A stretch of DNA of 14,714 nucleotides from Pseudomonadota bacterium (GCA_043818055.1 JBDRGF010000090.1:1-14714); one strand, 5' to 3'; shown: positions 1-14,026, numbered from the stretch's first letter. The notes: generated from the letters alone by a model not told the origin. Program-made: numbers and translations.

Positions 1-87
1 ACAGATATTCACAAAGAAAGGAAAAAGAAAAAAAGAAGCAAAAAAAGAAAAAGGAAAGAAAGTTACTACGGCTACTACTATGATTAA
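1..87 (+). CDS. 3' end of upstream ORF (partial): Lys/Arg-rich tail ending in a tyrosine cluster
   Basis: Frame 1 reads TDIHKERKKKKRSKKRKRKESYYGYYYD* with TAA at 85-87. Same strand as the cluster. Identity cannot be determined from 28 residues. Confidence 0.6.
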   Translation, partial: TDIHKERKKKKRSKKRKRKESYYGYYYD

Positions 88-161
88 ATTTTACACCTTA
101 GAAAAATAGAAGATTGGTCTAGACAAACCCAACCACCTTAGAATTCAACTCTTAATTTCAT

Positions 162-190
162 TTGCGAACCTATGAACAATCTGGTAATTT
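162..190 (+). promoter_or_regulatory. Possible sigma70-type promoter giving a near-leaderless transcript of the 200..484 ORF
   Basis: TTGCGA (162-167), 17-nt spacer, TAATTT (185-190) with TG at 182-183 (extended -10). The ATG at 200 has no recognisable SD. Weak match in AT-rich DNA. Confidence 0.25.
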
Positions 191-199
191 CACTTTACT

Positions 200-484
200 A
201 TGAAAAACACAAAAAATATGAATGTTGCTCCAAAGGGGACGACCGGTTATCCGGAGTTGGAAAAGCTGATCGAGACGGAAAATTTCGATGAGCTCAACGA
301 AGACTTCGAAAAGGCGTTTGCTGAGCTCGACGAAATCTCAAGCAAAGGGAAATCCCTTAAAAAATCAAGAGATGCGAAGAAGGCTCTCAAGGCCATAGAG
401 CTCACGATGGAGCTTTTGAAGGAGCTTTTGGCGTTGAAATACCGCCTTCAGGAGGAGCTGAAAAATAAGAAGCAGAAGAAATAG
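200..484 (+). CDS. Small helical/coiled-coil T3SS protein, SctE (YscE/CdsE)-like needle co-chaperone candidate
   Basis: 94 aa, charged, amphipathic helices (AKKALKAIELTMELLKELLALKYRL). Lies directly upstream of a needle-like gene and a TPR gene, matching the yscE-yscF-yscG order. Assigned by synteny only. Confidence 0.55.
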   Translation: MKNTKNMNVAPKGTTGYPELEKLIETENFDELNEDFEKAFAELDEISSKGKSLKKSRDAKKALKAIELTMELLKELLALKYRLQEELKNKKQKK

Positions 485-523
485 CTCAATGAGACTGTAT
501 AACAAATCAAATTTTGCATATAA

Positions 524-595
524 TGTCATTCTGAGTGAAGCGAAGAATCTTGTTAATTCGGATACTTAAGATCCTTCGTTACACTCAGGATGACA
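524..595. repeat. Palindromic REP/MITE-like element (GTCATTCTGAG...CGAAGAATCT / AGATCCTTCG...CTCAGGATGAC type)
   Basis: Arms TGTCATTCTGAGTGAAGCGAAGAATCTT (524-551) and AAGATCCTTCGTTACACTCAGGATGACA (568-595) are imperfect reverse complements. Resembles a widespread intergenic palindrome family. Confidence 0.8.
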
Positions 596-674
596 ATGAG
601 AGTTCGGTTTTTAGGAAGAAAGGGTGAGCATGGGGGATAAAATCCACATTTATTTCATTTTTTTCCATAAATTA

Positions 675-703
675 GCAACATCAGCTATCTCACCGGCCGA
701 TAA
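675..703 (+). promoter_or_regulatory. sigma28-type promoter of the needle-like gene
   Basis: Perfect sigma28 -10 box GCCGATAA at 696-703. GCAAC at 675-679 with a 16-nt spacer, the same arrangement as at 2786-2814. SD AGAGGAG at 711-717. Confidence 0.75.
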
Positions 704-729
704 CTTGATTAGAGGAGAAAAATATCGCC

Positions 730-1233
730 ATGAATAAAGGAATCGAAAAAATAAATCCGCAAGCTATCAAGGCCAGCTCAGCCGGCATGAAGGTGGGAGC
801 ATCCAAGGATTTCAGCTCCTTTATCGGTGCTGTGAACGCCATGGGTCCGGCCGCTGTCACAGCTGGAGACATGTACGCAAAAGTCCCTGCTCAGGCTGTT
901 TTACAGGCCGCATTTTCGGGCGCAGCTCAGTCAGGTAGCGTCGGTGGTAGTACTCCGTATATGGCTTCAGGTACAGTGCCGGGAATGATGGGTGCGGGAA
1001 GCTATGCTGGTATGAAAGGTACCTCCGTTCCCGGTGGAACTGACCCTGTAGGCGCTGACGCTGGAGTCGATCAGGCGACCCTCATGAATACGATGTATCA
1101 GAACAATTTAAAGCTGCTCGAATTGCAGGCCATAATGCAGACGAATATGCAGGCCTGGAATACGAAGTCGAATATATTATCAGCAGATCACCGCGCGCGC
1201 ATGGCGATGATCGAGAAGTTTAGCACGAGATAA
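730..1233 (+). CDS. sctF: SctF-like needle/filament subunit with a long Gly/Ala-rich N-terminal extension
   Basis: C-terminal LLELQAIMQTNMQAWNTKSNILSADHRARMAMIEKFSTR aligns without gaps to the recalled YscF/PrgI C-terminal helix (LQ...YN..S.I...ILQKFP; N..SN...IIQNFR). Sits between SctE-like and TPR genes and has a strong SD. Confidence 0.6.
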   Translation: MNKGIEKINPQAIKASSAGMKVGASKDFSSFIGAVNAMGPAAVTAGDMYAKVPAQAVLQAAFSGAAQSGSVGGSTPYMASGTVPGMMGAGSYAGMKGTSVPGGTDPVGADAGVDQATLMNTMYQNNLKLLELQAIMQTNMQAWNTKSNILSADHRARMAMIEKFSTR

Positions 1234-1338
1234 TAAAAGCAAAGGCGCATCTGGTATATGGTATATTGTATATGGTGAAAACCTGGCAGGGCGGGCTTTT
1301 TACCATATGCTATATGCCATATGCTATGTACCGCTTTT
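1233..1338 (+). repeat. Heptamer-periodic inverted-repeat hairpin (TGGTATA)n / (TATGCYA)n
   Basis: Left arm tggtata tggtata ttgtata tggtgaaaa (1252-1281). Right arm tttttacca tatgcta tatgcca tatgcta (1297-1326). Most mismatches are G.U-compatible on the + strand. Outer aaaagc/gctttt pairing. Confidence 0.85.
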
Positions 1339-1349
1339 AAGGGGGTAAG

Positions 1350-1814
1350 ATGATCGAAATTCCAAGGGAAAAATTGGTTGTGATGATGGAAGCCGGCTAC
1401 CTCTTTTTGGGGATGCAGCGATATAAAGAGGCTCATCAGGTCTTTGAAGGTGTGGCGGCGCTATCTCCTGATAGCGAAGTGCCAGTTGTAGCTCTAGGTA
1501 GCCTCGCCTTTTGTCTGGGCAAATTTAACGATGCGATCAAGCTTTATGACAAGGCGCTCAAAATCGATCCCAATAGCCTCTTTGCCAAGGTATATATGGC
1601 CGAGACCCTCTTCTTCAGTGGAAAGCCTGATAAGGCGAAAAAGCTTCTGGTGGAGGTGAGCACACACGACAGGCATGGTGCGGCTGGAGACTTTGCCCGC
1701 GCTTTGAAGGATGCGATAGATGACGGTTTTACCCCCGAGTCGCTCGAGGGGCACGCGGTAAAGAAAGGTAAAGGCAATGTCAAAACGAAAAAGACCCGCA
1801 AAATTCGTTCTTAG
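1350..1814 (+). CDS. TPR protein, SctG (YscG/CdsG)/LcrH-SycD-like T3SS chaperone
   Basis: About 3 TPR motifs (EAGYLFLGMQRYKEAHQVFEG..P; LGSLAFCLGKFNDAIKLYDKALKIDP; YMAETLFFSGKPDKAKKLL). SD AAGGGGG upstream. Follows the needle-like gene. Confidence 0.75.
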   Translation: MIEIPREKLVVMMEAGYLFLGMQRYKEAHQVFEGVAALSPDSEVPVVALGSLAFCLGKFNDAIKLYDKALKIDPNSLFAKVYMAETLFFSGKPDKAKKLLVEVSTHDRHGAAGDFARALKDAIDDGFTPESLEGHAVKKGKGNVKTKKTRKIRS

Positions 1815-2754
1815 TCTTATTCTCATAGGAATGCTCTTCATCGCGGGATGCAATCGCGTTGCGATATATCACAATCTCTCTGAAGAGGATGCGAATGCGA
1901 TGATCGTCTTGTTGCAGGAAAATGGCATCGAGGCTGAGAAGGTAAGAGAGGTTCAGCAAAACGAGGTCTACTGGTCGGTAGAGGTTTCGAAAGAGGATCT
2001 CTCCCGGGCGAGGCAGCTTTTAGTACATCACAATCTACCGCGACAGAAGGCGCTCGGATTGACCGGCGTCTATAAGGAGAAGGGACTCATCCCGACACCC
2101 GATGAACAGAAGGCGAGATACCTTTTGGCGCTCAAGGGAGAGATAGTCAATTCTCTTTTGAAGATTCCTGAAATAGTCGAAATCGATGTAGTGCTGAATA
2201 TCCCGACGAAAGAAGAATTTTCTGACGATACTGGAAAATCGCAGAAGCGTCCCACCGCCTCTGTCGTAGTGAGGGTATCCCAGACGACCGATGCAAGAGA
2301 GCTGATAACCGAGAGCAAGATCAAGGAGTTCGTGGCAAATTCAGTGGAGGGTCTAAATCCACGTGATGTTGCTGTGATAATCACCTATCTCCCCGGGCCT
2401 GAAAAATTTGTCGCGACTCAGGATTACAGGCTTCCCAAAGGGGCCGCATCTTCAAAGGATGTCGTGAAGGCTAAGGATGAAAAGAGAGAATCAAAGCTCG
2501 TAGGTCTGAATTTAACCGAGGAGTCCAAGGAGCGGTTGAAGATATATCTGCTCATTTTCTTTGTCGCTCTAGTCCTGTTGTCATCGGGCTTGATAATAGC
2601 GATAGTCTATGCCTCAAGGCTGAGGAGAAAATCATCCTCCTCTGAAAGGGGATTGATCCCATCCGACAAGAGATCTGCAGTCGAGGGTGAGGTGCTTGAG
2701 GATGGCGAAGAGGAGCCTCAAGAGGGAGAGGACGACAATATTTTCCCCGAATAA
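1777..2754 (+). CDS. sctJ: T3SS inner-membrane ring lipoprotein SctJ (YscJ/PrgK family)
   Basis: Lipobox IAG-C; IYHNLSEEDANAMIVLLQENGI; LIPTPDEQKARYLLAL; PTASVVV; IKEFVANSVEGLNPRDVAV; C-terminal TM helix and acidic tail. At 325 aa it is too short for FliF. Overlaps the TPR gene by 38 nt. Confidence 0.95.
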   Translation: MSKRKRPAKFVLSLILIGMLFIAGCNRVAIYHNLSEEDANAMIVLLQENGIEAEKVREVQQNEVYWSVEVSKEDLSRARQLLVHHNLPRQKALGLTGVYKEKGLIPTPDEQKARYLLALKGEIVNSLLKIPEIVEIDVVLNIPTKEEFSDDTGKSQKRPTASVVVRVSQTTDARELITESKIKEFVANSVEGLNPRDVAVIITYLPGPEKFVATQDYRLPKGAASSKDVVKAKDEKRESKLVGLNLTEESKERLKIYLLIFFVALVLLSSGLIIAIVYASRLRRKSSSSERGLIPSDKRSAVEGEVLEDGEEEPQEGEDDNIFPE

Positions 2755-2785
2755 GATGAGAATTTGATTTTTTTCTTTGAAAGAC

Positions 2786-2814
2786 GCAACTTTGGGTATG
2801 AAGCCCGCCGATAC
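2786..2814 (+). promoter_or_regulatory. sigma28-type promoter of the 142-aa ORF
   Basis: GCAAC (2786-2790), 16-nt spacer, GCCGATAC (2807-2814). Same architecture as 675-703. Confidence 0.7.
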
Positions 2815-2848
2815 TATATTTGAGACGTAATCAATACCTGGAGAAAAT

Positions 2849-3277
2849 ATGCAATTTAAGTCGATACAACCAAATCTTGTGCGCTATCAGATGAGAATGG
2901 TTCAGGGGGAAAATCCCCACGAACAGGCTCAGAAACGTCCCGGCGCATTTGGCCGGTTTCTTTCAGGCTTTGGCAAGATTATGGGGGCTGTTGCGGCTCC
3001 TCTTTCGTTCATCTTCCCGCCCGCTGCTATAGGTGCTGCTGGTATGTATGGGCTAGGTCAGATAGGTGATCAGGTGCAGGCCCGTGCTTATACGCGCCAG
3101 ATTGAAAATGTTCAGAAGCAAAAGGCCATGCAGATATCCTTCCCGGGTTTGGGTAATGCTCAGGGAAATGTCGATCCGGTGACCTATGGTGTCTCGATGC
3201 AGGATCAACAGGTTACCAATGTATTGTTTCAAAGGGATGCTGCATTGAATGATATGAATCAAAAGCTCCTTAAGTAG
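2849..3277 (+). CDS. Hypothetical protein with a hydrophobic Gly/Ala segment; candidate late T3SS substrate (tip/translocator/filament-associated)
   Basis: 142 aa, SD GGAG at 2840-2843. Amphipathic-hydrophobic stretch GAFGRFLSGFGKIMGAVAAPLSFIFPPAAIGAAGMYGLG. No Sec signal. Has its own sigma28-type promoter. Confidence 0.7.
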   Translation: MQFKSIQPNLVRYQMRMVQGENPHEQAQKRPGAFGRFLSGFGKIMGAVAAPLSFIFPPAAIGAAGMYGLGQIGDQVQARAYTRQIENVQKQKAMQISFPGLGNAQGNVDPVTYGVSMQDQQVTNVLFQRDAALNDMNQKLLK

Positions 3278-3290
3278 AGGTTTGAGGATT

Positions 3291-3695
3291 ATGGTAGAAA
3301 AGGTTAAAAAACAACGTGTTAGCCATCCACAGTTAAAGATAGTTCCTAATGAAATAAGGGACTTGGCCAAGACTTCAGAGGGATCTAAACTTTCAAGAAA
3401 GGGTGAGCTTGCCAGCCGTTTTAAAGAATTGCTGGGTAGAAGGCAGTTTCCTGCTACAGCCGAATTGACCGCTGAAGAGAGGAAGGAGATATTATATGAT
3501 CTCGTCGCTATACGAAAAAAAGGTGAGACCCCATTTATTCCTGAGACCCCAAAAGAGGCCCAGATGTTGAGAGATGGCTTCGAAAGGTATCATAATCTTC
3601 CTGAGAATATGAAAGTGGATCTCACAAGAAAAGGAATTACACCTCAAACCTTCGCACTCTTTTTTTCAATGCTGCAAAAATTTAAGAAGGGCTAA
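3291..3695 (+). CDS. Hypothetical basic helical protein
   Basis: Open frame 3282-3695. ATG at 3291 follows GAGG/GAGGA SD-like sequence and is the likelier start (134 aa). No recognised domain. Confidence 0.65.
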   Translation: MVEKVKKQRVSHPQLKIVPNEIRDLAKTSEGSKLSRKGELASRFKELLGRRQFPATAELTAEERKEILYDLVAIRKKGETPFIPETPKEAQMLRDGFERYHNLPENMKVDLTRKGITPQTFALFFSMLQKFKKG

Positions 3696-3696
3696 T

Positions 3697-3920
3697 CTGG
3701 ATTTCTCATAAAGCAATGAAAAATCCAGGAAATCTCAAATTACAAACTGCAAATTCCAAATAAATTTCAATGATCAAATTTCAAAATATCCAAAACAGTC
3801 TGTTTTATGTGTTTGAACATTGATTTTTTAGTTTGAAGTTTGTAATTTGTGATTTATTTGGGGTTTGGTGCTTGAAATTTGGAATTTCAAAGCATTTCTC
3901 ACTGTTATTATGAGAAATGC
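3697..3920. repeat. Composite palindromic MITE-like element: terminal hairpins enclosing a long heptamer (CAAATTY)n inverted repeat
   Basis: Left hairpin CTGGATTTCTCAT-aaagca-ATGAAAAATCCAG (3697-3728). Right hairpin GCATTTCTCA-ctgttatta-TGAGAAATGC (3892-3920). The two ends are inverted copies of each other. Inner arms 3729-3797 and 3801-3888 pair imperfectly with 7-nt periodicity. Confidence 0.8.
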
Positions 3921-3931
3921 GAGTTTAAGGT

Positions 3932-3949
3932 TGGGGGATTTTCTCCCCA
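3932..3949. promoter_or_regulatory. Palindromic candidate enhancer (bEBP upstream activating sequence)
   Basis: TGGGGGATTTTCTCCCCA dyad, about 85-100 nt upstream of a sigma54 -24/-12 element, with an IHF site in between. Confidence 0.45.
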
Positions 3950-3995
3950 TTTTCCAATAGATTTTCTAAAATGTCTTTTTCCAATTAGTTAAGCA

Positions 3996-4008
3996 AATCA
4001 AATAGTTA
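3996..4008 (+). promoter_or_regulatory. IHF binding site
   Basis: AATCAAATAGTTA is an exact match to WATCAANNNNTTR, has an AT-rich upstream flank and lies between the dyad and the sigma54 promoter. Confidence 0.6.
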
Positions 4009-4034
4009 AGTTTAAATCAGAGGCTATTTCCAAG

Positions 4035-4050
4035 TGGCACGGAACATGCA
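4035..4050 (+). promoter_or_regulatory. sigma54 (RpoN) -24/-12 promoter
   Basis: TGGCACGGAACATGCA matches TGGCACG-N4-TTGCW with one mismatch and correct GG/GC spacing. Lies 30-40 nt upstream of the sigma factor start. Confidence 0.8.
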
Positions 4051-4091
4051 AGCTTAAATCTGCGACCAGATAACTTTACATGGGGGTAGTG

Positions 4092-4994
4092 ATGGCAAGT
4101 TTACCGGCGAAGAAGATGAAAAAAAGAATACCTTCCAAATTGGAGCTTGAGGACAAGGCGCGTCGAAAGGCGGCCGCCGAAGTCACAGCTGCAATCGAGC
4201 ATGGGAAGCGAAAGAGGGGCCCGATTCATTTTACTAAGAAGGAGATGGGTTTGTTGAGAAAGCGCGACGAACTCATCGCACAGTATATGCCCTTTGCCGC
4301 CTCCATCGCGAACAGAGTTTGTCAGACACTCTCATCCGCAGTCGATCATGATGAGGTTATGTGCAACGCGAGATTGGGACTTCTCGAAGCGGCCAAGAGA
4401 TTCGATCCGAAACAGGAGGTCGATTTCAGAACTTACGCGTATTATAGGATCAAAGGCTCGATATATGACGGTTTGCGCCGCAGCGGATGGCTGCCGCGCA
4501 CCTTGTATGCCAAGGTCAGGTTTGAAGAAGCGGCCAGCGAATATCTGCAGAACAAGGCCTATGGCGCTCAGAAGGATGATGTTTTGCTCAGCAAAACAGA
4601 TGAGGAGATAGCCGATACCGTAAACCAGCTGGCATCGATCTATATTGTATCTTTAGAAGGGAGCGAGGAGTGTGAAAACCTTGAAGAGAAGAGCTCGGAG
4701 ATGGATGTCGAACGCAGGGCGGAATTCATGCAGGTTCGTAAATATATGAGGGCTGCGATAGCCGATCTTCCCGACAAGGAGAAGAAGCTGATCATGATGT
4801 ATTATTTTCAGAACAGAACTCTCGAAGAGATAGGAAAGAGGCTAGAGCTGTCGAAGTCATGGGTCTCGAGACTCCATGCGAGGGCGCTTGAGATGATGCT
4901 TAAGAGGATTAAGACGCTCGCTACTCAGACGATAAGCGATAATAGCGAATCGACGTTCGATACATCCGATGTATCCGAGACGTTCGATTTATAA
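4092..4994 (+). CDS. fliA: RNA polymerase sigma factor, FliA/WhiG (sigma28) family
   Basis: Region 2 RDELIAQYMPFA...GLLEAAKRFDP...FRTYAYYRIKGSIYDGLRRSGWLPR. Region 4 AIADLPDKEKKLIMMYYFQNRTLEEIGKRLELSKSWVSRLHARAL. ATG 4092 has a GGGGG SD; alternative start at 4080. Confidence 0.9.
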   Translation: MASLPAKKMKKRIPSKLELEDKARRKAAAEVTAAIEHGKRKRGPIHFTKKEMGLLRKRDELIAQYMPFAASIANRVCQTLSSAVDHDEVMCNARLGLLEAAKRFDPKQEVDFRTYAYYRIKGSIYDGLRRSGWLPRTLYAKVRFEEAASEYLQNKAYGAQKDDVLLSKTDEEIADTVNQLASIYIVSLEGSEECENLEEKSSEMDVERRAEFMQVRKYMRAAIADLPDKEKKLIMMYYFQNRTLEEIGKRLELSKSWVSRLHARALEMMLKRIKTLATQTISDNSESTFDTSDVSETFDL

Positions 4995-5021
4995 TTTTGG
5001 GTAAGTAAACTGGAGAAAATT

Positions 5022-5498
5022 ATGACTGTAATAAGCAAAGTCGGTGCAAAAACTGTTCAAAAGGCTTTTCAGGAGAGCCAAAAGCTCGCGAAGCCGCTCG
5101 ATAACGCAACCACTTTCAAGGATCTTATGAAGCAGGCGGACGATGGCAAAGAGTTTGCCAAGTCGCTGGGTATGAACAACGATGGCGCCGCGAAGACGAT
5201 TGAAACTATCGATGCGAAGGATGTGGCTTTCGATGCCGGCGATCTCACTTCGAATTCAAAGGGTCCGGATGGCAAGGAGAGGTTCGTTGAAATGTTATGT
5301 GAGATAAACAAAGGCCAGATGCACATGGATCAACTGGTTAATCATGTTCTTTACAGCGGAAAGAAATTCACGAATCAGGAGATGCTTGTGATACAGGCTC
5401 ATGTCTATCATTATGCACAGATGACAGAGATGACGGTGAAAGTAGCGGAACAAGGTGTAAACTCTGTTAAGACAGTGCTCAATACACAGGTTCAGTAA
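5022..5498 (+). CDS. sctI: T3SS inner rod protein SctI (YscI/HrpB2-like)
   Basis: C-terminal FTNQEMLVIQAHVYHYAQMTEMTVKVAEQGVNSVKTVLNTQVQ fits the inner-rod pattern (LL.lQ......EL..K........V..L). SD GGAG. Lies upstream of sctK/L/N. Confidence 0.75.
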   Translation: MTVISKVGAKTVQKAFQESQKLAKPLDNATTFKDLMKQADDGKEFAKSLGMNNDGAAKTIETIDAKDVAFDAGDLTSNSKGPDGKERFVEMLCEINKGQMHMDQLVNHVLYSGKKFTNQEMLVIQAHVYHYAQMTEMTVKVAEQGVNSVKTVLNTQVQ

Positions 5499-6544
5499 TG
5501 GGGGAATCGAATATCATGGGAACGCTCGAAAGACATAAAGTATTAGCCGCGATGATCGTGAAGGGTAAGGTCGATGATTACACTCCACTCGTCGATGCCC
5601 TCTCCCCTGAGGAGAAAAATCCTGTGAAAGAGTATATCAAAGAGCTGATGAATGAATCCGATGCCAGATACGCGGCTCTTGCCGAGATAAAAAAATTAAA
5701 GGCCAAACGCGATTTCAGGGACCTCGAGAAGGTTCACCCTGGATGGATACTTTACGCGCTGAGAGATGAATCTCCAAGGGTGATAGGCATTATCTTAAGA
5801 TATCTTCCTTCAAGGCAGGTCAGATACATAGTGCAGAACCTCCCGCCAAAGACCAGGGAGAGCCTTCCCCATATGGTGGAATCGTTTGCTGTTCCTTCAG
5901 AGGTGCTGGAGTTAGTTAAGAAAAAATTTATGGAGAGGTTTTCTTTTTTGAGTCCCGCCGTATCGGGTACGATTGCAAATCTCACAGCTGTCGATGGGGA
6001 AGGGGTAATGTCGATCGTTAAAGAGCTTGGAATAATGGAGTTGGGATTTGCGTTGTCAGGGCTCTCTAAACCATCGATGAAGATTCTCTATAATCGTTTA
6101 AAATTGAAGGATGCAAAAAAACTTAGGCAAAGGATTGTCGGATTTGAAGATGATTCCGCTTTAAGAAGGGAAGCGCGCTTCGCCCTTTTGGATATGAATT
6201 TAAAAGAGGAGGGCGAGGAGGAGCTTATACTAGAGATGGGGCTCAATTTTTTATCGAGGGCTATTTTGAAGGGTGATTCTTCGAGTGTCGATGTCATCTC
6301 CCAGAAGTTGCCCCCTCAATTTGGTTACAAGTTTAAACGCAAGGTCACTGAGAATTCAGTCTCCGTTAATGAAGAAAATGTGAAAAAAAGACTTAAGATC
6401 GTCTCAAAGCTTCTTTCTGATATGAGAAACGACCTGGTGATGGAGCTGAGCGATGACGAGGATACCGCGAGTTTTATATCCGAAACAGTTAACAGTTTAC
6501 AGTTTACAGTTAAAACCATCAGATATAATATCGAAAAACTGTGA
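5498..6544 (+). CDS. SctK-position sorting-platform protein with FliG middle/C-domain-like repeats
   Basis: VHPGW (SctK-type HPSW motif) is followed by LRDESPRVIGIILRYLP (FliG-M RDEHPQIIATIL-like) and VDGEGVMSIVKELGIMELGFALSG...KDAKKLRQRI (FliG-C-like). Located between sctI and sctL, with TAATG coupling to sctI. Confidence 0.7.
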   Translation: MGESNIMGTLERHKVLAAMIVKGKVDDYTPLVDALSPEEKNPVKEYIKELMNESDARYAALAEIKKLKAKRDFRDLEKVHPGWILYALRDESPRVIGIILRYLPSRQVRYIVQNLPPKTRESLPHMVESFAVPSEVLELVKKKFMERFSFLSPAVSGTIANLTAVDGEGVMSIVKELGIMELGFALSGLSKPSMKILYNRLKLKDAKKLRQRIVGFEDDSALRREARFALLDMNLKEEGEEELILEMGLNFLSRAILKGDSSSVDVISQKLPPQFGYKFKRKVTENSVSVNEENVKKRLKIVSKLLSDMRNDLVMELSDDEDTASFISETVNSLQFTVKTIRYNIEKL

Positions 6545-6575
6545 ACTGTGAACTGTGAACTGTGAACTGAAAACT
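6485..6575 (+). repeat. Heptamer inverted-repeat hairpin (ACAGTTW)4 / (AACTGTG)4 overlapping the 3' end of the SctK/FliG-like gene
   Basis: acagtta acagttt acagttt acagtt (6485-6511). aactgtg x4 (6537-6564) then aactgaa aact. The gene's TGA (6542-6544) lies inside the repeat. Confidence 0.9.
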
Positions 6576-6585
6576 AGGAGTTTTT

Positions 6586-7260
6586 GTGGCAAAAATCGTA
6601 AAACAAAAGGACTTAAAAAAGACGGATAAATCCGCCCCTGCCGTTTCGAAGAGTTTCGTCAGCCCTATAGTCGGAAAGGGAGGCATCGTTGATAAAAAGG
6701 TGCTGGCTGCCGGGGGTAAGGCGGAGGATATTCTGAAACAGGCCCAGGTCGAAGCTGAAAAGATAAGAGCCGAGGCTGAAAAAATAAAAACGGGCATTGA
6801 ATCAGCAAGAGAAAAGGCAAAAAAAGAGGGATTTGAGTCGGGACGCGAAGAGGGATTGCAGGTCTTTACTGAAAAGGTAATACAGCTGGAAAGGGAGCGT
6901 GAGGCATTTTTTGAAGAGGCGCAGGATGAAGTGATGAAACTCGTCATGTCTATCGCCGAAAAGATCATCGGCAAGCTAGTCTTGCAACACGAAGGGATTA
7001 TAGAAGTTGTCGTGCGTCAGGCGCTGGAGCGGGCGATCGGCGACAGAATAACAGTGCGCCTCAATCCGGATGACTATAAAGAGATAACCGATAAGGGTGT
7101 TGGATTTGGCGATATCATCGACAGGACGAGAAGGCTCACCTTTCGTGAGGATGAATCGATCGAACGCGGCGGATGTGTTGTTGAGACCGAGGTTGGAACG
7201 ATCGACGCGAGGCTCGAGACGCAGCTTAAGGCGATTCGCAAAACGCTCGGGGTGGGATGA
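6586..7260 (+). CDS. sctL: T3SS stator protein SctL (FliH/YscL family)
   Basis: GTG start with AGGAG SD (6576-6580). AxxxGxxxG repeats ([13 protein letters not shown]), [27 protein letters not shown] overlap with the ATPase gene. Confidence 0.92.
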
Positions 7261-8627
7261 TGGAGAAGAGGGTAAAAAAAATTCAGACTGAAGTAGGGGA
7301 GTTAGAGATTCCCGTCGTCGATTTTCATAAATATCAACATCTCCTTTCATCACTTTCAACATACAATATAAAGGGGAAGGTGACTGAGCTGACAGGTCTT
7401 GTCGTAAGGGCAGTCGTCCCAGGCGTGAGGATGGGTGAACTCTGTTTTATAGTTCCATATCATGGTCTGGCCCCCATAAAAGCAGAAGTCGTCGGTTTCA
7501 AGGATCAGGAGGTGCTCCTGATGCCGCTTGGAAATCTTGAGGGAATAGGTTTGGGTAACGATGTCATTCCCACAGGGCATAACCTCACAGTGAGAGTAGG
7601 TAACGGGCTTTTAGGAAGGGTGCTCGATGGTCTGGGCGATCCGCTCGATGAGGACAAATTAGGCCCACTCGATTTTTCAGCTGAGTATCCCGTCACAGCC
7701 GAACCGCCCAAAGCGATGAAGAGAGAGCGCGTTACAAGGCCTATCTCGGTCGGGATCAGAGCGATCGATTCTGTTCTTACGGTTGGCGAGGGGCAGAGAA
7801 TAGGTTTTTTCGCGGCGGCAGGTGTCGGTAAATCCACACTGATCGGCATGATCGCTCGCAATACGGAGGCGGATATCAACGTCATCTGTCTCGTCGGTGA
7901 GCGAGGCAGAGAGGTCAGGGATTTTATAGAGGGCGATCTTGGCGAAGAGGGATTGAAGAGATCGGTCGTCATCGTTTCCACATCGGACCAGCCCGCGCTT
8001 GTCCGTTTGAAGGCGGCATATGTAGCGACAGCCATAGCTGAATATTTTCGCGATCAGGGAAAGAGGGTCATGCTCATGATGGATTCGGTGACCCGTTTTG
8101 CCAGAGCGCTTCGCGAAGTTGGACTCGCAGTTGGAGAGCCGCCTGCGAGACAGGGTTATACGCCATCGGTCTTTTCGATGTTGCCCCGACTTCTTGAGAG
8201 GAGCGGAAATTCAGATAAGGGTTCGATAACGGCTTTTTATACGATACTCGTTGCTGGAGATGACATGAACGAGCCGGTCGCAGATGAGACGAGATCGATT
8301 TTGGATGGACATATCATCCTCTCCAGGGCGCTTGCCGCCAGAAGTCATTATCCAGCCATTGATATTTCTGAGAGCATCAGCCGTGTCATGGATTCCATCG
8401 TCGAAGAGGATCACAAGGATTGTGCAAGAAAATTGAGGGAGGTTGTAGCTAATTATGAGAAGGAGAGAGATCTGATTTTGATAGGCGCGTATGAAGAGGG
8501 CTCAGATCCGAAAGTCGATTACGCGATTGAAAAGATAGAAGAGGTGAACGAATTTCTGAAACAGAAAGTTACTGACAAAATTTCATTCGAAGAGGCTGTG
8601 GAAAAGCTCAAAGAGATTTTTTCGTAG
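7257..8627 (+). CDS. sctN: T3SS ATPase SctN (FliI/YscN family)
   Basis: Walker [10 protein letters not shown] (injectisome-type AAAG), GERGREV, Walker [33 protein letters not shown]. Confidence 0.97.
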
Positions 8628-8638
8628 GGGTGTGAATC

Positions 8639-9151
8639 ATGGCTGAAAAATACCGCCTACAGCCTATTTTGACCGTGAGAAAGAGGGTGAAGAGACAAGC
8701 TGAAATTCAGCTCTCTATCGCCCTCAAAGAGTTCAAAGAGGCGAAGGAAAAACTTAAAAAACTCGAGGAAGAGAAGGCAGAAATTGTAAAGGCGTGGAAG
8801 GCTAAGAGGCGCGAGATGGAAAAAGAGATGGGGCGCGGGGCTTTTATCGGCGAAGGAAATCGCTTTGTGAATTTTTTAAGGAAATTAAAAGAGGATCAGG
8901 AGAAGAAGGAGAAGGAGATAGAAAAACAGAAAGCTGCGATAGAGAAGGCCAAGGAGAACGTGGCGAAGTGCAGAAGAAAATATATCGATGCGTGCAAATC
9001 GCTTCAGACGATGGAGAAACATAAGGAGTTGTGGGAGAAGAAACAAAAGGATATACTGACGAAAAAAGAGGAAAAGGAAATGGATGAACTCTCAAGAACA
9101 ATTCATTCATTAAAAAAATGGCGCGGCGAAAAGTCAGTGTTTGAAAATTAG
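8639..9151 (+). CDS. sctO: T3SS stalk protein SctO (FliJ/YscO-like)
   Basis: Lys/Glu coiled coil with N-terminal YRLQPILTVRKR and MEKHKELW...EEKEMDE. Directly follows sctN. Confidence 0.85.
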   Translation: MAEKYRLQPILTVRKRVKRQAEIQLSIALKEFKEAKEKLKKLEEEKAEIVKAWKAKRREMEKEMGRGAFIGEGNRFVNFLRKLKEDQEKKEKEIEKQKAAIEKAKENVAKCRRKYIDACKSLQTMEKHKELWEKKQKDILTKKEEKEMDELSRTIHSLKKWRGEKSVFEN

Positions 9152-9202
9152 CATATAGCGCTTAGCGGATAGGTTTTTCTATCCGCTAAACGCTATGCGC
9201 TA
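9149..9202 (+). repeat. Heptamer inverted-repeat hairpin (TAGCRNW)n
   Basis: tagcata tagcgct tagcgga tag, loop gttttt, ctatccg ctaaacg ctatgcg cta. About 24-bp stem. The first TAG is the sctO stop. Confidence 0.85.
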
Positions 9203-9216
9203 TAGTTGGAGTTATT

Positions 9217-10008
9217 ATGACCAAAAGAACAAAAGACGTTGAAAAACCGAAGGAACCAATAGCTTCTCAATACAACTATAAGCCGAAGCCGAAGGCAAAA
9301 GATCAGAAGAGCAAGTTCGACAAGCTTCTCGAGCAGAAACAATTCAAACAGAGCTCCACCGTACAGGATTCCTCGCTTTTCAGAAAGACAGCGACAGAGC
9401 AGGCCGTAGGCCAGGCTCGTTCGCAGGATCAGGGGGATCGGGAGAAGAGGGATGAGAAGAAGGAGTTTCAGAAGAAAGATGGCGACGAGAGGTCGTCGGA
9501 AAAGAGGTCGGAATCTGGTCAGAAGGTAGGCGCTAAGCAATCGCTGAAGGACCAAAAGCAGCAGGGCGGATCGCAGAACAAGCAAGGCGGCAAGGGTTTT
9601 GGCATGGCAAAGAGGGGTGTTGTAGAGAAAAAGGGATTGGAGCAGAAGGGAAAGAGCGACACCTCTGTCGTAGCAAAGGGAAAATTCGCAAGGGAGCTGG
9701 CACAGAGTTTAAAGGATTTGTCCTCAACTCGCGCGAAGAGTGTCGATCAGGAAGTATTAAATGAAATCGTAAAATACGTGAAACTTGCTAAGAACGATAA
9801 CGATGAGAAGGAGATGGAGATTCATTTCAGGGATAAGCTCTTCAAGGGGTTGAAGCTCAAAGTTGCATCGACGGGAAAGGGTAGGGTCAGCGTCCACTTT
9901 TCATCCTCCGATTCCGAGACGAGAAGGATATTTGATTCGAACAAAAAGCGTATTGTAGATGCTTTGGGGAAACAAGGAATAGAGGTTGATGAGATTAGTG
10001 TTAGCTGA
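9217..10008 (+). CDS. sctP: Needle-length control/substrate-switch protein SctP (FliK/YscP-like)
   Basis: Long low-complexity K/Q/E/S N-terminus plus a C-terminal FliK-type domain (EMEIHFRDKLFKGLKLKV...GRVSVHFSSSDSETRRIFDSNKKRIVDALGKQGIEVDEISVS). Conserved position between sctO and sctQ. Confidence 0.75.
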   Translation: MTKRTKDVEKPKEPIASQYNYKPKPKAKDQKSKFDKLLEQKQFKQSSTVQDSSLFRKTATEQAVGQARSQDQGDREKRDEKKEFQKKDGDERSSEKRSESGQKVGAKQSLKDQKQQGGSQNKQGGKGFGMAKRGVVEKKGLEQKGKSDTSVVAKGKFARELAQSLKDLSSTRAKSVDQEVLNEIVKYVKLAKNDNDEKEMEIHFRDKLFKGLKLKVASTGKGRVSVHFSSSDSETRRIFDSNKKRIVDALGKQGIEVDEISVS

Positions 10009-10023
10009 TATATATTTAATCTG

Positions 10024-10953
10024 ATGACTATCAAACCATTCAAACTCAAATTGAAAAAAGTCACCGAGAGGGATATCCTGTGGGTATCATCCCTTTTTGA
10101 GCTCCCCTCCCATCTGGGATTGAATCCCACTATCACAGAGGATATTACAAATATTGTTTCGAGGCAGATCGGCGTAAATATGCGGATGGAGCTCGATAAT
10201 TATCAGAGGGAGACGTTCGGTGCTTTGAAGAAGAGGTTTGCGCACACATTTTTCGGTTTTTCATCCGAGATGATTCCCGATTCGCTTGATATCGTAACCC
10301 AGCTCGACATACCCTTCACCCTCATGATGGTGGAGCGGCTTCTTGGTAGTTCCAAGACGACATTTCCACATCCGAGGGATCTGACAGAGATCGAACAGGG
10401 GGTCTTTCAATATCTGATTTTAAATATCCTCTCAGAGATTCACAAAACTTTAAAGGCCAAGAGCAAAACGAGATTTCTTTTTAAAAAATATATCATCGGA
10501 GAACAGGACTTGAGCAGGACTTTTGAGCCTGATGAGGAGATGGTGGTTCTCAACTACCGCATTTGGGTGGGCGATAACTGTGGTTTTGTCAGAATTCTTT
10601 TTCCATTCTCTCTGATCGATAAAGTCGGATCTGTCCCCGAAGAGATGTCAGAGTTCAGTGAAGAGCGCTTACAACTGGTCGAACAAAATCTTGAGAGTTT
10701 CGGTTATCTCAACACATTGATTTGGGCAGAGGCAGGCAGAAGCAACGTTTCAGGAGCCGACTGCGGGGGCCTTGAAGAGGGGGATGTGGTCATCTTCGAT
10801 ACTTCCGAGATCGATTTTAAAGATGGCAAGCCAGGTGGTAATCTCATATTGCGTGTCGGCGACGGATTGGCTCTTGGCCTCTTGTCAGATTTTGAATTTG
10901 CCGGAAAAAATGATATAAAGTGTAAGATAAAAAAGTTATACAGAGGAGACTAG
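10024..10953 (+). CDS. sctQ: Cytoplasmic ring protein SctQ, FliM-like large subunit
   Basis: FliM-middle-like LDIPFTLMMVERLLGS...RDLTEIEQGVF...GFVRILFP, then a SpoA-like C-terminus (IWAEAGRSNVS...LEEGDVVIFD). Confidence 0.8.
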   Translation: MTIKPFKLKLKKVTERDILWVSSLFELPSHLGLNPTITEDITNIVSRQIGVNMRMELDNYQRETFGALKKRFAHTFFGFSSEMIPDSLDIVTQLDIPFTLMMVERLLGSSKTTFPHPRDLTEIEQGVFQYLILNILSEIHKTLKAKSKTRFLFKKYIIGEQDLSRTFEPDEEMVVLNYRIWVGDNCGFVRILFPFSLIDKVGSVPEEMSEFSEERLQLVEQNLESFGYLNTLIWAEAGRSNVSGADCGGLEEGDVVIFDTSEIDFKDGKPGGNLILRVGDGLALGLLSDFEFAGKNDIKCKIKKLYRGD

Positions 10954-11014
10954 TGCTTCGTCAATTTAATTGACACTGGTGTCAATATAATAATATTAAA
11001 TTGTTACGAGCACT
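10952..11014. repeat. 63-bp MITE/IS-end-like palindromic element
   Basis: Terminal imperfect IRs AGTGCTTCGTCAATTTAAT (10952-10970) and ATTAAATTGTTACGAGCACT (10995-11014). Internal dyad TTGACAC-TG-GTGTCAA (10970-10985). Confidence 0.6.
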
Positions 11015-11069
11015 TGTACCTGTCCTCAATATAATATAATAAAAAACTAAACAGATGAGGTGCTAAATT

Positions 11070-11576
11070 ATGCCAAGGCGCAAGAAGGAAGAAAAACCCG
11101 AAGAGGGAAGCGGTTTTGATGATAATTTTGATGAGTTCGACGAGCTCGAAGAGGAAAAGCCTGAAACTTCGGAGGATACAGATCCGATAGAAGAGGGAGA
11201 ATCTGAAGAGGAGGAGTTAGGCGAAGACCTCTTCGATGAAGATGCCTCCGAGGCTGAATCTGAAGAGGTAGAAGCGGCGCCTGAAGAAGAACTGCCCTCA
11301 ATCGAAGATGAAACACCGATGGAGGATGAATCATCAAAGGAGAATATCGCCTTCGAATCTTCACCCGATGTCGCAGTTCAACTCGTCGCCGTGATGGGAA
11401 AGAGAAAACTTAGCTTGAGGGATATTCTGGATCTTAAACTGGGCTCAGTCGTAGATCTAAAAAGGCCTCCCAATGAGACAGTCGATCTGGTAGCTAACGG
11501 CAAGCTGATCGCCAGAGGCGAACTCGTCGAGATAGAAGGAAAGTTGGGAGTTAAGATATTGAAGATAGTGAGGTAG
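11070..11576 (+). CDS. FliN/SctQ-C SpoA-domain protein with a long acidic N-terminal extension
   Basis: C-terminal SpoA domain DVAVQLVAVMGKRKLSLRDILDLKLGSVVDL...VDLVANGKLIARGELVEIEGKLGVKI. First ~96 aa are nearly half Asp/Glu. SD GAGG. Confidence 0.88.
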   Translation: MPRRKKEEKPEEGSGFDDNFDEFDELEEEKPETSEDTDPIEEGESEEEELGEDLFDEDASEAESEEVEAAPEEELPSIEDETPMEDESSKENIAFESSPDVAVQLVAVMGKRKLSLRDILDLKLGSVVDLKRPPNETVDLVANGKLIARGELVEIEGKLGVKILKIVR

Positions 11577-11653
11577 TTTGTAGTTCACAGTTCACAGTTT
11601 ACAGTGAACTGTGAAAACTTCGACCACATAGCTTTTACTGTAAACTGTAAACT
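11574..11653 (+). repeat. Heptamer inverted-repeat hairpin (YAGTTYA)n / (ACTGTAA)n
   Basis: tagtttg tagttca cagttca cagttta cagtgaa (11574-11608) and actgtaa actgtaa act (11637-11653). Same unit family as 6485-6575. Begins at the stop codon of the FliN-like gene. Confidence 0.85.
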
Positions 11654-11669
11654 TTATAATGGGGGATTT

Positions 11670-12026
11670 ATGTTTTTCAGTCCATTACTCACAGCTGCTG
11701 TTTCTACTGTAGAGGCGACGCCATCCACCACCATTGATTTTACATGGCTCTTTCTAAAGATGGTCATCTTTTTGGTGATCGTCATCGTGTTAGCGCTCAT
11801 CTTTCTCAAATACGGTGCCCCGAGATTGCGTAAAACTATGGGGATCGAGGGATACTTTGAAATTTTGGGGAGAAAAAGGCTGGAGGGAAGAAAAGTCCTC
11901 TATTTTGTTAAGGGGCCTGAAAGATATTTCGTGATCGGAGTCGCGGAACATGGTATAAGTAAAATCGCCGAATATAAATTAGATGAAATAGAAGGGGTGG
12001 GGGGAGATGCTCAGTCAAAGAAATAA
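11670..12026 (+). CDS. fliO: FliO-family membrane protein (export-gate assembly chaperone)
   Basis: TM helix (WLFLKMVIFLVIVIVLALIFLKYG) then FliO-type beta domain FEILGRKRLEGRKVLYFVKGPERYFVIGVAEHGISKIAE. Between the FliN-like gene and sctR. ATG 11670 has a GGGGGA SD, whereas the ORF-track start at 11604 lies in the repeat. Confidence 0.8.
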   Translation: MFFSPLLTAAVSTVEATPSTTIDFTWLFLKMVIFLVIVIVLALIFLKYGAPRLRKTMGIEGYFEILGRKRLEGRKVLYFVKGPERYFVIGVAEHGISKIAEYKLDEIEGVGGDAQSKK

Positions 12027-12789
12027 AAAGAGCCTTAAACTTTTCGTCGGTGTCGGCGTTGTCCTTTTAACTCTATCAATAAGCTCCATTGCGCATGCCC
12101 AGAACGTGGCCGCAATGAGCGTCTCAAAGCCGCTCGTGCTCTTGGGGCTGCTCGCATCTTTGGCGCTGGTTCCTTTCATGGTCATGATGGTGACCTCGTT
12201 TGTCAAGATAGCGGTCGTCCTCTCTTTGGTCAGAAATGCGATCGGCACGCAGCAGGTGCCGCCTAATATCGTCGTCACAGGCCTTGCTGTGATACTCACG
12301 ATTTACATAATGGCGCCAGTCGGGCAGGAAATTTACAGCTCTGCTAAAGGTGTTATTAATCAGGGGAGTAATCAGCCGATGATGTCGCAGGCGACGGTCA
12401 AGCTTCTCCTCGAAGGGGTTGAAAAGGGAAAGGGGCCAGTTCGCGCATTTCTCCTCAAACATTCCCATGAGAAGGAACAAAATCTCTTTTACAATCTCGG
12501 TTTGAAGCTGGAGAACGATCCAAAGAAGAAGGATGAGATTAAAAAAGAGGATTTTATAAATCTCATCCCAGCCTTCGTCGTGAGCGAACTAGCCGAAGCC
12601 TTTCAGATCGGTTTCATAATCTTTTTGCCATTTTTGGTGATAGATCTTGTCATAGCCAACATTCTTCTTGCCTTGGGCATGTTCCAGATCTCGCCGATCA
12701 CTATTTCGTTGCCGTTTAAGCTCTTGCTATTTGTGCTGGTAGATGGCTGGCACCTCATAGCGAGAGGATTGATATTGGGGTATGTCTGA
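12007..12789 (+). CDS. sctR: T3SS export apparatus protein SctR (FliP/YscR family)
   Basis: MMVTSFVKIAVVLSLVRNAIGTQQVPPN, LIPAFVVSELAEAFQIGFIIFLPFLVIDL..ANILLALGM, PITISLPFKLLLFVLVDGW. N-terminal signal-peptide-like segment ending AHA. Confidence 0.96.
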   Translation: MLSQRNKKSLKLFVGVGVVLLTLSISSIAHAQNVAAMSVSKPLVLLGLLASLALVPFMVMMVTSFVKIAVVLSLVRNAIGTQQVPPNIVVTGLAVILTIYIMAPVGQEIYSSAKGVINQGSNQPMMSQATVKLLLEGVEKGKGPVRAFLLKHSHEKEQNLFYNLGLKLENDPKKKDEIKKEDFINLIPAFVVSELAEAFQIGFIIFLPFLVIDLVIANILLALGMFQISPITISLPFKLLLFVLVDGWHLIARGLILGYV

Positions 12790-13055
12790 TGTCGGGATAT
12801 TTTGTCGCCATAGCAAAACAGTCTCTGTTTTTGGTACTGATTCTCACAGGGCCACCGGTGCTAATCGCCATGGTAGTCGGTTTGACCATCAGTATTCTCC
12901 AGGCGACGACTCAGATTCAGGAGCAGACGCTGACTTTTGTGCCAAAGCTCTTTTCAGTTGTTCTCGTCCTGGCTATCGGGGGACCATGGATGCTTGCGCA
13001 GCTGATAGGTTTTACCATTTCCCTTTATGAAGCAATCCCGACGTATGTGCATTGA
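12789..13055 (+). CDS. sctS: T3SS export apparatus protein SctS (FliQ/YscS family)
   Basis: VGLTISILQATTQIQEQTLTFVPKL motif, 88 aa, TGATG coupling with sctR. Confidence 0.96.
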   Translation: MSGYFVAIAKQSLFLVLILTGPPVLIAMVVGLTISILQATTQIQEQTLTFVPKLFSVVLVLAIGGPWMLAQLIGFTISLYEAIPTYVH

Positions 13056-13059
13056 GTTT

Positions 13060-13121
13060 ATAAAAACAAAGGCGCATGTAGCATGTGGCATGTAGGATGT
13101 AGTAAAGCCATGCAACATGCG
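13060..13121 (+). repeat. Heptamer repeat (GCATGTR)n with a short inverted arm, preceded by the leader ATAAAAACAAAGGCGCAT
   Basis: gcatgta gcatgtg gcatgta ggatgta (13074-13101), then gccatgcaacatgcg (13107-13121). The 18-nt leader at 13060-13077 matches 1233-1250 at 17/18 positions. Confidence 0.8.
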
Positions 13122-13132
13122 ATTTTTCCCCA

Positions 13133-14026
13133 ATGAATGATATCCTATCCAAAATTGGCGTTAATATAAATGTTACTTTTGCCCTCATCTTTTTTTCACT
13201 TCTTTGGGTGCGCGTGTTGGGAATGGCGATCATGATTCCCTTCCTCTTTGGCAAGCCGGTGCCGAAATATGTCGTCGTTGGGTCGGCTTCAGTTTTGGCG
13301 ATATTTTTGTTTCCGTACCTCATGCCTGCAACTCAACCTGACCTCACAAATGATTTCCTGATGCTCTTCATGCTCTATCTCAAGGAGGCCTTTTACGGTA
13401 TAGTCATGGGGTTTTCAGTCGCTATATTTTTCTATGGATTTCAGGCGGCTGGCCAGATGATCGATGGCCAGCGGGGTATGTCTATAGCCAGATCGATACT
13501 GCCTCAGCTGGGGGAGCAGAGCGCCCTCTCCGGCATCCTGCTCTTTCAGATGGCGGTCGTCCTCTATTTGAGTTTTGGCGGTCATCTCGTATTTTTAGAT
13601 TCATTTATGATGAGTTACAAGGCGTTGCCTGTGCTCGAGTTTCCTCAGGTGGGGCCGGGACTCTTTCCCCTCATGGATCTATTCGCCCGCATCACTGGGG
13701 AGGTGCTCTATATTGCCGTCCAGATAGCTGCCCCAATAATGATAGCGATATTCGTAGCCGACATAATCTTAGGTCTGTCAAACCGTATAGCCCCTCAAAT
13801 AGATGTCTGGATGCTCGGTTTTAATATCAAGGGCTATGTCGGAATCCTGCTCTTCTTTACAGCACTTGGGATGATAGGGAATCAGGTATATAATTATACC
13901 CAAAAATCAGTTATTTACGTTGAAACAGCTAAAAAGTTACTTGAAGGTAAGCCCGACGAAGTTCAGCTCGAACTCGACAAAAATATCGAGGATATCAAGC
14001 TGCCGATGGAGGTTATTACGAAGTAG
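13133..14026 (+). CDS. sctT: T3SS export apparatus protein SctT (FliR/YscT family)
   Basis: Multi-TM protein: RVLG..P, LKEAFYG, AAGQMIDGQRG, GGHLVFLDSFMMSY..LP, IAAP....DIILGLSNRIAPQIDV. Follows sctS. Confidence 0.95.
   Translation: MNDILSKIGVNINVTFALIFFSLLWVRVLGMAIMIPFLFGKPVPKYVVVGSASVLAIFLFPYLMPATQPDLTNDFLMLFMLYLKEAFYGIVMGFSVAIFFYGFQAAGQMIDGQRGMSIARSILPQLGEQSALSGILLFQMAVVLYLSFGGHLVFLDSFMMSYKALPVLEFPQVGPGLFPLMDLFARITGEVLYIAVQIAAPIMIAIFVADIILGLSNRIAPQIDVWMLGFNIKGYVGILLFFTALGMIGNQVYNYTQKSVIYVETAKKLLEGKPDEVQLELDKNIEDIKLPMEVITK

Follow-up and report, generated by a model that had tools for sequence, protein, structure and literature searches.

HrpL of Pseudomonas syringae is the alternative sigma factor of a type III secretion system (T3SS) cluster; its target, the hrp box, marks genes of the machine as well as scattered effector genes and has been used to find effectors. 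Among sigma28 (FliA) promoters, that of Pseudomonas aeruginosa fliC is described, in the available parts of two reports, with TCTAAAG at -35 and GCCGATAA at -10 (PMC12784957; 10.1101/2020.01.02.893370). The FliA regulon of Bdellovibrio bacteriovorus has the motif TTAAG-N16-CCGATA, according to the available part of its description (PMC3627812). The locus considered here lies on 14,714 nucleotides (nt) of DNA from a Pseudomonadota bacterium (GCA_043818055.1, JBDRGF010000090.1:1-14714), referred to as the window, which is the whole of contig C90 of the 2.93-Mb, 93.6% complete source genome (G000). It carries a non-flagellar T3SS cluster, a FliA/WhiG-like sigma factor gene and two copies of a two-box motif, GCAAC-N16-GCCGATA. 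The motif is probably a variant sigma28-class promoter, one likely read by a FliA derivative dedicated to the T3SS. The features on which this reading depends are the following (aa, amino acids):

675..679, plus strand: predicted -35 box of promoter 1, GCAAC (24 orthologous sites: GCAAC 22, ACAAC 2)
696..703, plus strand: predicted -10 box of promoter 1, GCCGATAA (sequence reading and pattern count)
713..717, plus strand: Shine-Dalgarno-like AGGAG ahead of the 167-aa gene (sequence)
730..1233, plus strand: 167-aa protein, likely needle- or rod-like; first gene after promoter 1
2786..2790, plus strand: predicted -35 box of promoter 2, GCAAC (31 orthologous sites: GCAAC 22, GAAAC 8, ACAAC 1)
2807..2814, plus strand: predicted -10 box of promoter 2, GCCGATAC (sequence reading and pattern count)
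2840..2843, plus strand: Shine-Dalgarno-like GGAG ahead of the 142-aa gene (sequence)
2849..3277, plus strand: conserved 142-aa protein outside known families, central hairpin hydrophobic; first gene after promoter 2
4080..4994, plus strand: group 3 sigma factor of FliA/WhiG type, which likely reads the motif
4848..4877, plus strand: region 4.2 recognition helix of this sigma factor, codons 257-266 (62 distinct orthologues aligned)

Both pairs of boxes lie exactly where the original prediction placed them, each with a 16-nt spacer, and the two spacer sequences differ from each other, as it had also stated. The N16 pattern has exactly two matches in the window against none in 200 dinucleotide shuffles. 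An ATG follows 27 nt (promoter 1) and 35 nt (promoter 2) downstream, each with its Shine-Dalgarno-like stretch. The -10 box GCCGATAA, with its CGATA core, is that of a sigma28/FliA-class promoter; at -35, GCAAC takes the place of the TAAAG or TCTAAAG of that class. Transcription is predicted to start at about A711 (promoter 1) and G2822 (promoter 2), in the register given for P. aeruginosa fliC in the available part of the report (PMC12784957). Scanning window positions 1-5100 for sigma70 promoters and terminators gave counts no higher than in shuffles, and Rfam at gathering level returned nothing for the window and three loci.

The two sites belong to a genome-wide class, GCAAC-N14..16-(G/A/T)CCGATA, represented in the source genome by 46 strict and about 108 relaxed sites (one mismatch allowed, noncoding DNA only), nearly all intergenic and gene-directed. 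Strict GCAAC-Nx-GCCGATA matches number 19 at N14, 23 at N15 and 4 at N16, the seven other spacers within 12-21 totalling 4, so a fixed N16 pattern covers only a subclass: the motif originally proposed is real, but its invariant spacer holds for 4/46 strict sites. TAAA as the -35 partner gives no comparable spacer peak in this genome. Noncoding DNA holds 43 of the 46 strict sites versus 47/559 lone GCCGATA boxes, and an open reading frame (ORF) of at least 100 aa with Shine-Dalgarno stretch and ATG begins within 100 nt downstream on the same strand at 29/46, compared with 2/46 in a mirror test and 24/559 for lone boxes. An ORF of at least 80 aa lies within 260 nt of 97/108 relaxed sites (median distance 36 nt). 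GCAAC by itself is common, only 120 of its 5183 occurrences having a -10-like box at motif spacing. As a means of finding the regulon the motif is usable genome-wide, though not in its N16 form alone, and the first two -10 bases vary.

Motif scans covered genomes of this phylum, presumably GTDB UBA10199, judging from the names of relatives ('Deltaproteobacteria' metagenome genomes). The motif is found in 31/31 close genomes (4-77 sites each, control 0-6) and in 93/93 genomes of the phylum (5-104 sites each, reversed control 0-8), bearing out the expected recurrence in the genome and its relatives; since kin are not independent, the 93 genomes attest to inheritance rather than to 93 separate proofs. 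At orthologous sites the -35 box is GCAAC, GAAAC or ACAAC and the -10 box NNCGATA(A/C). The pattern TAAAG-N14/15-DCCGATA stays at control level across the 93 genomes (highest 14 vs 4, in G087), and matches in viral contigs are scattered singly across all three spacers, resembling chance. On sequence evidence, the motif is real, conserved and part of a far larger set than first noted. Full-text literature searches returned no description of this promoter or sigma factor, an absence weakly tested in that the motif letters are not a search term.

Spacer length separates a conserved tier of sites from a larger, more variable one. An orthologue search took the best site in 48 loci (one counted twice), neutral to spacers of N12-18. 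Ahead of orthologues of the 167-aa gene, N16 occurs in 21/24 sites and ahead of those of the 142-aa gene in 30/31, the rest being N15 and none N14; 24/48 and 17/48 loci, respectively, went uncounted, having no orthologue by a single query or meeting a contig end. Both boxes are retained at these sites as the spacer sequence drifts, and the conservation ahead of orthologues that had been anticipated is thus found. Two unlinked genes behave similarly:

C102:14261-14902 (L084:9262-9903): 213-aa orphan, found in 33/41 genomes
C104:28359-28994 (L085:8360-8995): lytic transglycosylase, found in 39/41 genomes, paralogues included

With the source genome included, N16 precedes the 213-aa orphan in 23/30 loci (1 unaligned) and the lytic transglycosylase in 27/30 (N15 in 2, no site in 1), that is, 23/23 and 27/29 of the sites found; both genes may encode T3SS components unlinked to the cluster. 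N16 is thus kept at four core loci, the two window sites among them, and most other sites are N14/15 and lie ahead of orphan genes. An A/T tract opens the spacer in 76% of N14, 73% of N15 and 0/9 N16 sites, and spacer GC is 0.31, 0.36 and 0.47, respectively, reaching 0.63 at orthologous N16 sites. The small N16 tier with GC-rich spacers would thus serve machine-associated genes (the needle-like protein and SctJ operon, the 142-aa protein, the lytic transglycosylase and the 213-aa orphan), and the large N14/15 tier, with its A/T-tract spacers, would drive orphan genes of individual lineages, many of them encoding type III-like N-termini.

The window sigma factor has regions 2 and 4, and its nearest solved relatives are WhiG and FliA, placing it in the FliA/WhiG group 3; its TIGR02479 score of 138.6 is under the cut-off of 189.6, and a quick tree sets its type in a clade separate from the relatives' flagellar FliA. 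Eleven -10-contacting residues are listed for Escherichia coli sigma28 in the available part of one report (10.1101/2020.01.02.893370), and 6/11 are retained, counted on an alignment to solved structures. In the region 4.2 helix, L257, S258, K259, S260, W261, R264 and H266 are invariant in 62/62 distinct orthologues. In P. aeruginosa sigma28, as far as the report is available, the bases -36T and -35C of TCTAAAG are read by Q228 and S224, respectively, and the substitution Q228A reduces transcription (PMC12784957); R264 and S260 of the window sigma align with these two residues. The canonical flagellar helix with its base-reading Gln is therefore absent. With N16 in the fliC register, the bases at -36 and -35 are G and C. 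The simplest account would be that Arg, having replaced Gln, reads G where Gln read T. The changed helix would accordingly recognize GC in place of TC, and sigma regions 2-3 would still read the CGATA -10 box. Promoter 2 may read through into the sigma gene, a proposed positive feedback. The claim that the cluster's FliA-like sigma reads a sigma28-type promoter with an altered -35 box thus finds support in co-occurrence and in the helix change.

The downstream genes are rich in orphans. In a Pfam scan covering 92/94 non-window genes, 24/92 motif-led proteins have a match versus 55/73 genes of 20 random regions (p = 2e-10). Their first 25 residues are richer in S/T/P/N/G (fraction 0.325 vs 0.268; 60 vs 790 proteins, p = 2e-4) and poorer in D/E than controls, with gene starts taken from a purpose-made ORF caller and approximate. 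Type III substrates tend toward N-termini rich in S/T/P/N/G and poor in D/E. Proteases, FHA and TPR proteins and a serpin are included in the set.

Four sigma70-family proteins over cut-off are encoded in the source genome, namely an RpoD-like, an RpoH-like, one extracytoplasmic function (ECF) and the window sigma, besides sigma54. The window sigma is present in 91/93 genomes and 63/63 high-quality ones, the two exceptions being 73% and 78% complete, and it is the sole alternative sigma tested that tracks the motif. An ECF sigma could be considered as the reader, GCAAC being the -35 of the GCAAC-N16-CGTC ECF class, and one is indeed encoded; but it has no conserved orthologue (best 37% identity), 35/93 motif-bearing genomes have no match at E 1e-8, no motif site precedes its own gene and the -10 box is of sigma28 type rather than CGTC, all of which makes this explanation very improbable. 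It is also very improbable that the RpoH-like or housekeeping sigma reads the sites, or that the boxes bind a non-sigma regulator. RpoD is universal and the RpoH-like sigma occurs in 69/93 genomes at E 1e-55, yet 24 motif-bearing genomes, among them one assembled as a single contig and all members of three families, have no RpoH-like match at that threshold, dnaK and groEL have no GCAAC-type site, and a non-palindromic two-box layout some 36 nt ahead of the start codon suits a promoter.

The repeated upstream DNA shared by 26/108 sites (among them one pair that stems from an assembly overlap) would fit the idea that mobile elements or duplication scattered the copies, and that these do not work as promoters. 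This shared DNA stops at or before GCAAC, however, the spacers and -10 boxes beyond it differ, the window's two sites have no such repeat, and orthologous sites keep both boxes while spacers drift, so the idea has hardly any credibility. A narrower scope is a possible, if not the favoured, alternative: only the N16 tier would be read by the T3SS sigma alone, the N14/15 tier being read by the same or another holoenzyme together with an activator or in a different growth phase, and the roughly 100 genes would form a general attack- or host-phase programme instead of a T3SS cargo list. The sharp difference between tiers in A/T tracts and spacer GC, the signal-peptide-like N-termini and ordinary enzymes of the motif-led set, and the available account of Bdellovibrio FliA driving 92/140 attack-phase promoters, many non-flagellar (PMC3627812), speak for it; the boxes common to both tiers and the presence of only four sigma70-family proteins speak against it, and no activator site was noticed, though no search aimed at one was made. 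It is largely compatible with reading by the T3SS-dedicated sigma and differs in scope.

Reading by the T3SS-dedicated sigma has itself to be set against several observations. Since nearly every genome of the phylum has motif and sigma alike, their joint presence counts as one inherited event, and RpoD co-occurs with the motif too. The other 5/11 E. coli -10 contacts are changed, as are both -35 backbone contacts (K208, R220), and one helix would have to serve three spacer lengths. The sctU and sctV genes lack a motif site, no tip, translocator or gatekeeper operon was recognized under the motif, and 6/30 loci of the 213-aa orphan are without any site. A single groundwater metatranscriptome run contained 0.55 of the words and its contigs covered 28/30 bins flatly; this flat cover is indistinguishable from DNA and gave neither starts nor expression. 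The proposal of a 'late substrate/effector regulon' fits in part: the orphan-rich set and N-terminal bias favour it, but about one-fifth of the proteins have hydrophobic N-termini, as in controls (13/60 vs 212/790, p = 0.45), and several motif-led genes are ordinary (uridine kinase, DEAD helicase, MFS and radical SAM). Caution on predicted regulons also comes from Chlamydia, where chromatin immunoprecipitation sequencing gave only two sigma28 targets, as reported in the available part of the study (PMC12282069).

The remaining genes of the window complete the T3SS cluster:

200..484, plus strand: 94-aa conserved ORF upstream of promoter 1 (same-place orthologues in 9/14 loci; no Pfam match)
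1350..1814, plus strand: TPR chaperone (SycD/LcrH and CdsG models, scores under cut-off)
1777..2754, plus strand: SctJ inner-membrane ring lipoprotein (profile matches)
5022..14026, plus strand: rest of the non-flagellar T3SS cluster, with no further strict motif copy

The last interval comprises a 158-aa ORF and genes for FliG-like, SctL, SctN, SctO, SctP-like, FliM-like, SctQ, FliO-like, SctR, SctS and SctT proteins. With SctJ, L, N, O, Q, R, S and T in the window and no rod protein in the genome, the system is a non-flagellar T3SS. SctU and SctV are encoded on other contigs (C88:8091-9176; C159:84952-87102), where their genes are solitary among housekeeping genes, sctV near rpoD and dnaG. 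Three secretins occur in the genome, with neighbours that, on translations read by eye, resemble type II secretion system (T2SS), type IV pilus and Tad loci. Tad-like, T2SS and type IV pilus-like loci (C20:1-5259, C15, C127; L125) and a gas vesicle cluster are further features of this genome.

By place and size the 94-aa ORF would resemble a needle chaperone of SctE/CdsE type. The 167-aa protein has no Pfam or NCBIfam match and no PDB relative. ESM Atlas places it near clusters from Myxococcota; in one of these, 11% of the members carry PF09392 (T3SS_needle_F). Its model shows a 52-residue C-terminal helix with the remainder at low confidence (mean pLDDT 55.6). The earlier label 'needle-like' thus gains from the neighbour cluster and the helix but not from any family or structure match, and a needle- or rod-like role is plausible. 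The 142-aa protein has no significant PDB match and no known relative (model mean pLDDT 52.7). Three kinds of small intergenic repeat also occur in the window: a palindromic element (533-594, 9152-9205), short heptamer-like runs (6538-6570, 11580-11615) and, ahead of the sigma gene, an imperfect AT-rich array (3720-3890). RNA contigs end at several of the window's intergenic repeats, as multi-copy elements would give.

The altered -35 box had been proposed to insulate the cluster sigma from a flagellar FliA. No flagellin, rod protein, FlgM or second FliA match exists in the source genome at its level of completeness, so insulation has no target there. Flagellin over cut-off is found in 11/93 genomes, each of which also encodes a second FliA; this has the canonical helix and, in a quick tree, branches apart from the T3SS-type sigma. 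Ahead of their flagellin genes a GCAAC site is found in 0/13 cases and, with one search pattern, sigma54 boxes in 0/13. Instead, 8/13 upstream regions have AAG(T/G/C)T-N12/13-TCCGT 61-91 nt before the start (shuffle maximum 1/13); these loci are L170-L175, L178 and L179 (G067, G060, G074, G087, G076, G055, G059, G058), and their FliA proteins form one branch. This pattern was devised after viewing the sequences, and across whole genomes (5 flagellated, 5 non-flagellated) a loose form shows no enrichment; it should be taken as a lead. Flagellin promoters of these relatives appear to keep the classic -35 and to change the -10 instead, and each of the two sigmas may have changed at the box that the other conserved. 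At lineage level insulation would therefore be a fair account of origin, though not of present function in the source genome. A second, diverged copy of the T3SS-type sigma was seen in four non-flagellated genomes (G086, G084, G085, G089; L209, L212, L213, L214).

The repeated DNA abutting the -35 box at 26/108 sites is of several kinds, and since the repeats end before the promoter core, the elements did not create the promoters. A group II intron, on the template strand, lies at the upstream edge of the -35 box, where 12/12 junctions continue with GCAAC and a -10-like box at N14/15. The locations are:

Group II intron junctions: source genome contigs C14, C18, C60 (both ends), C111, C125, C130, C156, C164 and C165; L031:5300-5660; 3' ends L215-L220
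Other repeats ahead of GCAAC: source genome contigs C16, C17, C18, C28, C33, C131, C155, C162 and C165; C30, C56, C126 and C154; C18 and C114

Six identical RF00029 3' ends at contig ends pair with six identical 5' ends; the assembly lacks the intron body and reverse transcriptase, and the junction can be placed only to within a few bases. GCAAC also occurs in a loop of a part weakly matching Rfam domain I (E 0.87), and this loop could be the exon-binding site of the intron. A metagenome scan for the junction gave 56 matches, 8 with the motif; all but one of the 8 are identical to junctions of the source genome and so are not independent. The available part of one report on intron target specialists lists terminators and start/stop codons, not -35 boxes (PMC12584367). 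A transposase tail and a related 170-bp miniature element end 12 nt upstream of GCAAC in 5/7 and 3/4 copies, with a 4-bp duplication visible at the C33 copy. Both appear to be IS1380-like. A third repeat family ends 11 nt upstream in 4/5 copies, and an ISNCY/IS481-like end lies 15-16 nt upstream in 2/2. Such fixed distances look like promoter-directed insertion.

The sigma type extends beyond the phylum. Among the best 150 representatives at 50% identity, 110 have the helix of the window sigma and 11 the canonical one; named carriers are Myxococcota (Hyalangium minutum, Stigmatella aurantiaca, Myxococcus stipitatus) and Acidobacteriota, the Hyalangium sigma being 37% identical to the window sigma. 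A plasmid collection contained only canonical FliA (about 32%), and a search of viral contigs with the Hyalangium sigma found no myxobacterial DNA.

A comprehensive scenario can be drawn up from these elements, speculative as a whole and with less than an even chance of being right. FliA would have been duplicated at the injectisome-flagellum split; the T3SS copy would have retained the CGATA -10 with a -35 helix altered to read GCAAC, and the flagellar copy would have kept an AAGTT -35 and changed its -10. Throughout the phylum, the T3SS sigma would then act as master control of a programme for attack on hosts or prey, comprising up to about 100 genes, with spacers that code for machine parts (N16) or cargo (N14/15). 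Cultured predatory myxobacteria, and Acidobacteriota, have this sigma type as well, and the group II intron and other mobile elements would have acquired a preference for target sites just upstream of the -35.

The motif offers a sequence handle on the cargo of an uncharacterized, early-branching T3SS in a phylum without known biology: in each genome it flags about 100 genes, of which three quarters match no Pfam family. The findings connect it with a specific sigma factor and with a proposed one-residue specificity change, and they show how a flagellar regulator may have passed into the injectisome. Because cultured myxobacteria share the sigma helix, regulation of their predation-linked T3SS is directly testable. 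What these analyses add is a candidate sigma with its altered helix, the connection to a T3SS, the spacer tiers and the reciprocal motif of flagellin genes.

Compared with described systems, the window sigma resembles HrpL in its role as a cluster-encoded regulator; HrpL is an ECF (group 4) sigma with another -10, whereas the window sigma is FliA-derived. With sigma28 class 3 promoters such as fliC of P. aeruginosa, as far as the two reports are available (PMC12784957; 10.1101/2020.01.02.893370), the locus shares the -10 box and a group 3 sigma; the N16 register keeps C at -35 and Ser in the helix, and a secreted filament-like subunit would be driven in both. It departs from that class in its GCAAC(TT) -35, in the helix changes Gln to Arg and Arg to Trp, in spacers of N14-16, in the lack of a flagellum or FlgM, and in a sigma gene placed within a non-flagellar T3SS cluster. 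The Bdellovibrio FliA regulon, in the available part of its description, likewise has a sigma28-type motif and about 100 mostly non-flagellar, often unknown genes, in a deltaproteobacterial lineage of small genomes; it has a classic -35, a flagellum and mapped starts, whereas here the -35 and helix differ, a T3SS is linked and the sites are known from sequence (PMC3627812). The window T3SS resembles the early-branching Myxococcales ('Myxo') type, a system without a secretin of its own, and named myxobacteria have the same sigma helix; the available part of its description gives no promoter motif for the Myxo system and reports it without SctF and FliG, whereas the window cluster has needle-like and FliG-like genes (PMC3459982).

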